The position numbers were made by a program, and so were the translations under genes. Source: a virus (taxonomy: Duplodnaviria > Heunggongvirae > Uroviricota > Caudoviricetes). From it: a stretch of DNA of 4,742 nucleotides. Each line of letters begins with the position of its first letter. Position 1 is the stretch's first letter. The DNA lies in the IMG/VR virus record IMGVR_UViG_2740892258_000009, one strand, 5' to 3'. A model generated the notes under the pieces. It saw only the letters and a list, made by a program, of their open reading frames with translations. It was not told the DNA's origin and did not search any database. Positions 118 through 372 of this stretch are shown here, in pieces.

Positions 118-346
118 AGTTGTGGTGCCGGGTGCCTCCCGGTGCCTGGCGAAGGTTGCACACCAGGCGGGTGGGTATCCACAGAAGGTCGACTGTCAGC
201 CTCAACCTTAACCCGCGTGCGCTGAGCCGCATTCACCACAACGCTAAGGATTCTCTCTGGTTGAAAATACTTAGCTGTTATGTGCCTGCTTTTAGCCACA
301 TCAGGCGAGGTGGACCTGGTTATTCCCCAACAACAAGGATTCGGTT

Positions 347-372
347 AATCTGGATATCCCCAACAACAATAA
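347..372. repeat. Left arm of the 26-bp inverted repeat bracketing the zinc-ribbon gene
   Basis: AATCTGGATATCCCCAACAACAATAA (347-372) against the reverse complement of 901-926, AATCTGGATATCCACAACAGTAGTAA. The outer 13 nt are identical and 22/26 match overall. The inner edge abuts the putative SD (371-375). Confidence 0.8.

Follow-up and report, generated by a model that had tools for sequence, protein, structure and literature searches.

The window, the whole 4,742-nucleotide (nt) stretch of the Caudoviricetes record IMGVR_UViG_2740892258_000009 in IMG/VR, covers the immunity region of a lambdoid E. coli prophage resembling SfV and CPS-53, and this report concerns its segment 49-392, in front of and overlapping the start of a gene for a zinc-ribbon protein. 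A first-pass annotation had labelled most of this segment (118-372) a hairpin-dense spacer; by homology, 49-392 instead holds two RNA modules on the strand opposite to the gene, an antisense segment resembling P22 sas and a small RNA (sRNA) resembling STnc100. Over window 1-1100, the part in which relatives were compared, E. coli IHE3034, APEC O18 and others have the sequence in their chromosomes at 100% identity, and in those chromosomes the prophage lies at a tRNA-Arg gene, beside folD/ybcJ. Of the complete E. coli genomes searched, more than half have matches to parts of the region, and CPS-53 of E. coli K-12, which has yfdP-T, is without the region studied. To the left of the window, all on the minus strand, lie yfdP, yfdQ, yfdR, a yfdS-like gene, yfdT and int, together the early-left operon of SfV/CPS-53-type phages. 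Alignment with SfV places the probable -10 element of the early leftward promoter PL at 1046->1041, so that the elements described below are all downstream of PL on the minus strand. The features referred to in the text are as follows.

49-272, minus strand: STnc100-like sRNA at full model length (Rfam cmscan, minus-strand fold, conservation).
51-98, minus strand: intrinsic terminator, an 11-bp stem GGCGGUACCAG/CUGGUACCGUC followed by U6 (sequence, Rfam alignment, minimum free energy (MFE) fold).
121-241, minus strand: multi-branch core of the sRNA (RNAalifold, alignment A4).
128-142, minus strand: family hairpin CCGGG-AGGCA-CCCGG, in the 20-mer CCGGGAGGCACCCGGCACCA (142->123).
172-187, plus strand: motif copy 1, in a small hairpin, GUGG-AUAC-CCAC, of the variable arm of the sRNA.
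242-275, minus strand: P0 hairpin (GCUAAG.../...CUUAGC), 5' of the sRNA core (MFE fold).
276-392, minus strand: sas-like antisense segment, complementary to the promoter, 5' untranslated region (5'UTR), ribosome-binding site (RBS) and start codon of the plus-strand gene.
283-313: conserved 31-mer TGCCTG-N7-CCAC-N-TCAGGC-NN-GGTGG, at the junction with the moron slot and, in P22, near the 3' end of sas.
316-336, plus strand: direct repeat 1, CTGGTTATTCCCCAACAACAA (motif copy 2), overlapping the -35 and at a position homologous to that of repeat 1 ACCCCTACAG of λ/P22.
346-351, plus strand: -10-like hexamer TAATCT between the repeats, of the inferred zinc-ribbon gene promoter.
350-369, plus strand: direct repeat 2, CTGGATATCCCCAACAACAA (motif copy 3), at the predicted 5' end of the plus-strand mRNA and in the proximal arm (347-372) of an inverted repeat.
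384-899, plus strand: zinc-ribbon cargo gene, encoding a 171-aa coiled-coil and zinc-ribbon protein of phrog_1244 (PGAP coding sequence in IHE3034).
901-926: distal arm of the inverted repeat that brackets the cargo, pairing with 347-372.
925-937, minus strand: rrn-type boxA AGCUCUUUAACAA, with one mismatch to TGCTCTTTAACAA, directly 5' of the helix formed by the arms.
938-963, plus strand: intrinsic terminator of the zinc-ribbon gene (terminator scan, folds), which on the minus strand is a hairpin right before boxA.
1046->1041, minus strand: inferred PL -10, CATAAT, aligned with SfV TTGACA-16-CATAAT.
2531-3292, minus strand: cI-like repressor gene.
3342-3605, plus strand: cro-like gene.

The window further carries ymfL, an O-like replication gene and, downstream of cI at the position of λ rex, a ParA-like gene. 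The zinc-ribbon gene fills the slot held by sieB in λ and P22; its product matches phrog_1244 in PHROGs at 9e-60 and no Pfam or PADLOC family, and at the position aligned with its start, GTG 384, the Klebsiella homologue has ATG. Relatives are conserved over 1-313 or 1-367 and again over about 900-1030, and the gene between differs: in Kati and SfIV an unrelated 144-aa open reading frame (ORF) begins at the same position behind the same leader.

On the minus strand, 392->276 is, by alignment, a homologue of the P22 sas antisense RNA and of the λ sequence that precedes sieB. The 127-nt sas RNA published for P22 (sequence from PMC13397905 Table 2) aligns over its full length with the minus strand of the window (alignment A5). 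Both RNAs begin at the start codon of the plus-strand gene, continue through a G-rich repeat 2', a spacer and a G-rich repeat 1', and then carry the 31-mer CCACC..GCCUGA.GUGG..AAAAG.CAGGCA. By BLASTN, window 281-351 matched λ 34394-34464, ending 18 nt before sieB, and Hafnia phage Pocitis76 and P22-like phages gave matches too, in front of their annotated sieB. Judging from gene order and strands, the segment is antisense to the 5'UTR and start of a rightward gene situated within the leftward early operon. The sas RNA and sieB/esc of P22 are reportedly the subject of Ranade and Poteete 1993, Genes Dev 7:1498. In P22, sas switches translation of sieB from SieB to Esc (PMC12197685; PMC7067206).

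The 31-mer was present in at least 120 IMG/VR contigs (this count, like that of the 20-mer given below, is a lower bound) and in 93 unique leaders, each of which precedes a small plus-strand ORF from one of at least 22 unrelated families, the commonest in this sample being the zinc-ribbon family (11 variants), followed by SieB (8). Several of the ORF families linked to the 31-mer have CxxC zinc-ribbon motifs (IMG/VR loci L132-L266). The leaders are of two types. In the short type, GGTGG is followed directly by TATNCT in 38 of 39 cases, forming an extended -10 (TGnTATNCT), and then by a covarying hairpin with the Shine-Dalgarno sequence in its 3' arm; in the long type, to which the window, λ and P22 belong, two direct repeats lie around the -10-like hexamer. 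A relaxed pattern for the 31-mer returned about ten single-sided changes in the GCCTG/CAGGC arms, one of which is a wobble, and no compensated change. An H-type pseudoknot (CCAC/GUGG crossing GCCUG/CAGGC) was considered and rejected, the arm variants being one-sided and none compensated. By this comparison of variants the 31-mer is conserved as a sequence and not as a helix.

The first-pass annotation had also described a motif family in four copies, three before the zinc-ribbon gene and one inverted behind it, and had read it as an array of protein-binding sites such as recombinase or transposase ends, operators or iterons. The copies are present and three are exact, TGGRTATCCMCARMA matching at 172-186 and 351-365 on the plus strand and at 908-922 on the minus strand, with 0.10 matches expected in dinucleotide shuffles and none of 200 shuffles reaching three. 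Copy 2 (317-333) is degenerate by a single extra T and has a perfect 13-mer, TCCCCAACAACAA, in common with copy 3 (324-336 = 357-369). Copy 1 (172-187) is the weakest, a 12-nt match at 92% that is on par with several obviously accidental pairs in the same repeat list; its sequence is not conserved in the Salmonella homologue (L038/ST64B), and its resemblance to the other copies is probably due to chance. Because copy 1 lies in a hairpin of the sRNA, copies 2 and 3 are the repeats of the sieB-leader/sas type and the inverted copy is the distal arm of a longer repeat, the four copies are split among three different things, and the notion of a single array is not supported.

Read on the plus strand, the two sas repeats are copies 2 and 3, with the -10-like hexamer between them. 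Most of the 37 distinct leaders of the long type have repeats that match at 10 of 10 positions with a spacing of 33-35 bp, in five sequence versions (ACCCCTACAG, TCCCCAACAA, CCCCAATGCA, TTCCACAGTC and (G/A)CCCCCACAA) that are tied neither to the cargo nor to the immunity type. Between the repeats, all 37 leaders have a hexamer with A2 and T6 (TATAAT in five, TAAACT in λ/P22), and the plus-strand mRNA is predicted to start inside repeat 2, at about 356-360. The concerted change of the repeats between phages argues for an interaction between the two copies and, since they are direct repeats, the sole base-pairing option would be intermolecular, between repeat 1' of the antisense RNA and repeat 2 of the mRNA. 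Repeat 1' is found in a hairpin loop in most phages, with arms UUCUCG/CGAGAA, UUCCU/AGGAA or UUCUUG/CAGGAA; these arms are given as a list only, a fixed-column covariation count having been dropped as the MAFFT register varies between subtypes.

The same repeats could instead be recognized by a protein, as operators for a dimeric or tandem-binding factor at the -35 (317-336), at the start site (350-369) and at the distal position (901-926), possibly with DNA looping. Such sites would suit the core TGGATATCCA, which is perfectly palindromic at 913-922 and 9/10 palindromic at 351-360, the distance of 33 bp (about three helical turns) between direct copies on either side of the -10-like hexamer, and the over-representation of the motif relative to shuffles. 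We nevertheless consider operators unlikely, as both arms of the inverted repeat in locus L227 have GATGACT in place of the palindromic core, with complementarity kept, the λ/P22-type repeats ACCCCTACAG are not palindromic, and the window and PhiR29_1 have shared repeats but different cI. In addition, CCCCAACAAC precedes at least five unrelated ORFs, CCCCTACAG precedes sieB and non-sieB ORFs alike, and no candidate binding protein was identified. An operator or iteron array is not supported by a repeat type that tracks neither the immunity type nor the cargo gene.

The inverted copy behind the zinc-ribbon gene proved to be real and larger than first noted, being part of a 26-nt inverted repeat (347-372/901-926, 85% complementary) that brackets the ORF exactly. 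Its distal arm also follows different cargo genes in Kati, SfIV and Kp4882 and at 14 distinct IMG/VR loci, always directly before a conserved GATTGTTAAAGAGC, and was not found in λ, P22, Pocitis76 or SfV. The arms covary in L227, which has AATCTGGATGACT in both, and in L007, and in Kp4882 the same A->G change (AACGAC) is present in both arms. When the minus strand was folded from 960 to 330, a long-range helix of 926->901 with 372->347 appeared in both the MFE and the centroid structures, with boxA single-stranded just 5' of it; the helix was not formed in the fold of the predicted plus-strand mRNA. Duplex energies favour the minus strand even for unrelated segments. A strand test based on transition bias (23 differences G·U-compatible on the minus strand versus 4 on the plus strand) was discarded, its outcome being forced by the C/A-rich proximal arm.

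The boxA at 937->925 matches UGCUCUUUAACAA at 12 of 13 positions, and the distance to it from the inferred PL -10, on its upstream side, is about 100 nt. Read on the minus strand, GATTGTTAAAGAGC becomes GCUCUUUAACAAUC, a 13-mer that the E. coli rrsH leader has, letter for letter, as its boxA; the 13-mer common to the window boxA and the E. coli K-12 rrsH leader is GCTCTTTAACAAT. Hafnia phage Pocitis76 has the same 12-mer next to its tRNA-Gly and N genes. No N-like ORF was found between PL and the early-left genes in the window or in the IHE3034 annotation, no boxB-type pentaloop hairpin follows boxA, and orf33 of SfV, at the place equivalent to that of N, is not arginine-rich.

Exact bracketing of an ORF by an inverted repeat, equivalent arms holding different cargos in Kati/SfIV, Kp4882 and the 14 IMG/VR loci, and similarity to relatives that stops at ~367 and returns at ~900 would all be expected if a small cassette, mobile or for recombination, inserted cargo here and had its ends at 347-372/901-926, with the motif as its end or recombination site. 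The putative cassette, however, contains neither a transposase nor an integrase, its cargo belongs to no Pfam family, and its flanks (GGTT versus GTTA) show no target-site duplication; lack of transposase and of duplication likewise speaks against the transposase ends proposed earlier. The proximal arm is moreover the conserved leader repeat 2, present without a distal arm in λ, P22, Pocitis76 and SfV, and the swapped segment includes neither arm, which is what ordinary homologous recombination between conserved flanks would give. A mobile cassette is therefore, in our assessment, improbable.

Immediately downstream of the sas-like segment on the minus strand, 272->49 is a structured RNA that we assign, from covariance-model and comparative evidence, to a divergent branch of the STnc100 (RF02076)/PasD family of prophage sRNAs. 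A permissive Rfam cmscan matched STnc100 at 40.3 bits (E=2e-6) over model positions 1-206, the single meaningful match of the scan; weak matches to DicF (E=9), ftsZ-DE, CC0196 and STnc410 were rejected as chance-level. Canonical phage carriers of the 20-mer CCGGGAGGCACCCGGCACCA score 57-147 bits as STnc100, and the subgroup of the window type (L038, L094, L073 and L018) gave no STnc100 match at the gathering score. The segment 49-272 is conserved at 95-99% in SfV, SfII, SfIV, Kati and mEp460_4F5, and the sRNA core at 87% in Salmonella ST64B. The first-pass annotation had described the region as packed with structure, which is true of the minus strand, where the fold of 40-285 has z=-3.75 and none of 200 shuffles folds as well, and not of the plus strand (z=-1.32).

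The core is closed by stem P1, in which UGUGGUG (240->234) pairs with CACCACA (127->121), and also holds a P2 hairpin, a variable arm and P4 (168-163/149-144). In the consensus fold of 81 non-identical phage cores (RNAalifold), 15 of 28 pairs show compensatory double changes. P1 extends beyond UGGUG/CACCA by covarying pairs alternating between GC and AU and between CG and UA; in P2, where the window has GCGGC..GC.CGC as a compensated version of the canonical CCCCC..GGGG, pairs are kept through double changes (CG:63, GC:7-9, UA:7-8). The core sequences UGGUGAAU and CACCGGGAGGCACCCGGCACCA, which close the multi-branch loop, are both exact in the window. The 20-mer was found exactly in at least 120 IMG/VR contigs, and its 112 distinct 280-nt contexts fall into 33 clusters with little else in common by BLAST. 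On the 5' side, P0 has GAUAAGAG/CUCUUAUC at the equivalent place in ST64B, which is a compensatory change, and begins 6 nt after the sas-like 31-mer, leaving no room for a separate promoter; module A, as we term this RNA (the sas-like segment being module B), is thus probably co-transcribed with the sequence upstream of it. On the 3' side, a single-stranded tail of about 20 nt separates the core from the terminator at 98->51, which the terminator scan missed because its loop is 19 nt and the scan takes loops of 3-8.

Most of the structural details first read from this region find a place in module A. The word GGTGCC does occur three times, at 124, 131 and 141, as read in the sequence, and corresponds to the complement of the family hairpin plus the 3' strand of the closing stem. 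The stem proposed at 144-149/163-168 (GCCTGG/CCAGGC) is P4, which covaries strongly, and that at 171-174/179-182 (GTGG/CCAC) is real as well, an extra small hairpin in the variable arm. A third, 124-132/138-146, holds for 128-132/138-142 (CCGGG/CCCGG) and fails in the remainder, which is not Watson-Crick. The search for an Rfam family and for compensatory changes that had been suggested gave both, the STnc100 match and the covarying pairs, on the minus strand.

PasD sRNAs, related to STnc100, were detected by RIL-seq (ligation of interacting RNAs, then sequencing) on Hfq and form a prophage-encoded family, and STnc100 copies are located downstream of stx2 (bioRxiv 10.64898/2026.05.13.724894; PMC12370729). 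Canonical STnc100 genes have a TTGACA-17-TAAATT promoter. Canonical copies are often found in tandem, three of them consecutive in L025 (342-1038), or adjoining tRNA gene clusters, with further instances in L010 (8044-8560) and L017 (1142-1942), which suggests that they are processed out of long late transcripts, like tRNAs.

The hairpin-rich segment might alternatively act, in place of N, as an RNA of the HK022 put type that renders RNA polymerase resistant to terminators. No N gene lies between PL and the early-left genes, terminators are present on the leftward path, and put RNAs are GC-rich double hairpins; putL, however, directly follows PL (PMC9378689), whereas the window element lies about 760 nt downstream and has its own terminator, no sequence resemblance to HK022 putL was seen (compared by eye only), and the element matches over its full length an sRNA family of which the remaining members, in late regions, each come with a promoter and a terminator, so that we hold a put-like function to be very improbable. 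The weakest proposal, a decayed protein-coding gene at 1-239 (either yfdP extended at its 5' end or another hypothetical protein), draws on the PGAP annotation of a frameshifted hypothetical-protein pseudogene over window <1-239 (minus strand) and on an open 681-nt ORF (226 aa) annotated through the same DNA in SfIV and Kati, and we give it hardly any credence, given that this DNA fits a structured-RNA family over its full length with compensatory base-pair changes, that dozens of unrelated genomic surroundings, tandem arrays beside tRNA genes among them, contain the conserved core, that the frame is interrupted by a stop at 11-13 in the window and by a 1-nt indel inside the ORF of the Salmonella homologue, that translations match no Pfam family in either frame and no PADLOC family, and that SfV and PhiR29_1 annotate the 363-nt yfdP only. 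The observation extends to L131 (5928-6239), and such ORF and pseudogene annotations are probably a propagated artefact; a BLASTX match here, proposed earlier as the sign of a gene remnant, would mislead.

Taken together, the locus is likely explained, and we hold this with some confidence, by two adjoining leftward modules, the STnc100-like RNA and the sas-like RNA, in an untranslated part of the PL unit (window 49-392). Homology, covarying RNA structure, the architecture and co-variation of the repeats, the diversity of the cargos and the identity of boxA were observed directly. Of the earlier alternatives, a structured regulatory RNA leader came closest: structured RNAs are there, on the opposite strand and as two distinct modules, and they are not the leader of the zinc-ribbon gene.

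Several results weigh against this explanation. The STnc100 match, at 40.3 bits, does not reach the gathering score (47). For module A, in contrast to canonical members, no promoter was found, P0 abutting the 31-mer and a sigma-70 scan being empty there; the same scan, over 1-1400 on both strands, returned no promoter at all, including any for either RNA, and visual search upstream of the 5' end of the sas-like segment found none here or in a P22-like phage. STnc1310 of ST64B, the one nearby Salmonella RNA with expression data that could be mapped, is a different, non-homologous RNA. Internal pairing of the 31-mer is unsupported by covariation, and the repeat-1' hairpin is weak in the window (CCUUG/CCAGG, with a U·C mismatch). 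Finally, the cargo has no similarity to SieB and no Esc-like internal start or product was identified, and the translation switch specific to P22 may not apply here.

STnc1310 (D23580 2099207-2099280, 74 nt) corresponds to 1854-1927 of L236 (Salmonella phage ST64B), between the PL leader and the STnc100-like RNA. If read leftward, it would have its own intrinsic terminator at the end, and nothing in the window is homologous to it. Of the RNA-seq conditions listed, four give its highest expression values, and the STnc1310 paper describes high expression under peroxide and nitric oxide shock.

How the two modules might work can be proposed by analogy, and PL transcription, processing, Hfq dependence, translational control and a function of the helix are here what we infer. 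In the lysogen, the zinc-ribbon gene would be expressed from its own weak promoter (-10 TAATCT), with its mRNA starting in repeat 2. When PL fires, the leftward transcript would be antisense to the 5'UTR, RBS and start codon of the cargo and could shut off or re-programme its translation, as for sieB/esc in P22, where this is experimental; repeat 1' of the antisense RNA, usually in a hairpin loop, may recognize repeat 2 at the 5' end of the mRNA. Within the leftward transcript, the 901-926 copy would pair with repeat 2' in a helix of about 25 bp after boxA, with the antisense cargo looped out. Module A would be released by termination at 51, probably together with processing on its 5' side, to become a stable trans-acting RNA, probably associated with Hfq by analogy with family members, and its terminator would gate entry into yfdP-yfdT/xis/int.

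With no N gene and about 600 nt of untranslated antisense RNA, a boxA for Nus factors would make sense as a safeguard against Rho. Pursued further, this leads to a speculative proposal that we think possible but doubtful, namely that N-less SfV-type phages treat the antisense side of a moron as the rRNA operon treats 16S, in a portable, cargo-independent cassette for expression and silencing. On this proposal, boxA at 937->925 would recruit Nus factors so that transcription from PL survives Rho over about 600 nt, and the Nus-modified complex would aid formation of the helix of about 25 bp between 926->901 and 372->347. RNase III would then cut the helix, excising the antisense cargo and setting the 5' end of a composite sas-like and STnc100-like RNA, whose free repeat-1' loop would target the 5' end of the moron mRNA. 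If this is true, the 31-mer, the repeats, the inverted repeat and boxA would form one portable cassette in front of at least 22 unrelated accessory genes.

Under the two-module explanation, the annotation of "frameshifted pseudogene" and "spacer" would be replaced by two RNA genes, and the STnc100/PasD family would be extended by a subgroup new to it, in a setting also new to it, the early-left operon, and apparently lacking its own promoter. The 30-year-old sas/sieB module of P22 is not specific to sieB, being a widely shared leader in front of prophage accessory genes of many unrelated kinds, whose role is likely exclusion or defence. Both RNAs are of known kinds; their arrangement is new, and the leader cassette around them is widespread and independent of the cargo. 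As a mark of the moron slot, the 31-mer offers a handle for finding candidate exclusion or defence genes, while the concerted repeats and the boxA with its helix yield testable predictions on how a phage may silence its own lysogeny-expressed gene at the lytic switch.

Further observations were made elsewhere in the window. The leader of the PL transcript (958-1034, minus strand) is near-invariant in SfV, Kati, SfIV, PhiR29_1 and ST64B despite their differing immunity regions, and contains a hairpin with two compensatory pairs, CCGGU..ACCGG in the window and ST64B versus CCUGG..CCAGG in SfV and Kati; as a whole it folds no better than shuffles (z=-0.3). It could serve in regulation or in antitermination independent of N. 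An AT-rich inverted repeat spans 1064-1110, within the immunity-specific segment and a short way upstream of the inferred PL, with a perfect 10-bp portion (1070-1079/1089-1098, as earlier reported) that extends to 18 nt at 78%; the portion at 1070-1098 contains CAACAACAA, the whole contains CAACAACAAA, and there is a 12/13 match with 361-373. Directly downstream of cI, at the position of λ rexAB, 1284-2360 (minus strand) encodes a 358-aa ParA/AAA_31 ATPase, followed by a GC-rich terminator (1276-1257); the protein has a weak PADLOC match, limited to the N-terminal P-loop, to the candidate defence protein PDC-M28B (5.7e-9). The ymfL-like gene contains a perfect tandem duplication (3963-4074; 56-bp unit, 2.0 copies, 100% identity), which shifts the frame since 56 is not a multiple of 3. 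At the right end (4693-4742), within the O-like replication gene, the 15-bp unit TCTGACCCGTCAAAA is tandemly repeated in 3.3 copies, possibly as iteron-like origin repeats.

Comparison with known systems places the locus as follows. Like a transposon or miniature inverted-repeat transposable element (MITE), the window has an inverted repeat, but without target-site duplication and without a transposase domain in the enclosed ORF; it differs from operator and iteron arrays in that its arms covary with each other and keep no fixed site. As in the nut regions of λ and P22, its boxA is on the PL transcript, but with neither an N gene nor a boxB-type pentaloop hairpin after it. In the leaders of rrn operons, boxA is followed by a long-range RNase III stem, and boxA protects untranslated RNAs such as CRISPR arrays (PMC7665894, PMC5725501). 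With these leaders the window has in common the identical 13-mer GCTCTTTAACAAT, a hairpin before it and, directly after it, a long-range helix around a long untranslated segment; it differs in belonging to a phage early transcript, in having no identified boxC and in the size of its helix, about 25 bp enclosing 528 nt.

The likeness to STnc100/PasD consists of the full-length model match, the identical 22-nt CACCGGGAGGCACCCGGCACCA and UGGUGAAU, the same multi-branch layout and the intrinsic terminator at the 3' end. The window RNA differs by its score below the gathering threshold, its compensated P2, its extra 5' hairpin and extra small hairpin and the absence of any promoter found for it, and by lying in an early-left operon near the immunity region, whereas the copies described are late, downstream of Q or stx2, or beside tRNA genes. 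The region upstream of λ sieB (J02459 34394-34481) is 76% identical over 71 nt including the 31-mer, with the same order of repeat, spacer and repeat ending at the start codon; in λ, however, the repeats are ACCCCTACAG, no inverted copy follows sieB, and N and nutL lie upstream. P22 sas occupies the same position, antisense to the 5' end of a prophage-expressed plus-strand gene in the leftward early operon, has the same 31-mer near the 3' end of the RNA and two G-rich repeats 33-34 nt apart, and can be aligned over its full length. Its target is sieB, whereas that in the window is the unrelated zinc-ribbon gene of phrog_1244; its repeat is CUGUAGGGGU, against UUGUUGGGGA in the window; and the window adds the distal inverted copy behind the gene, beside boxA, and an RNA that runs into the STnc100-like RNA where that of P22 runs into ral-type genes.

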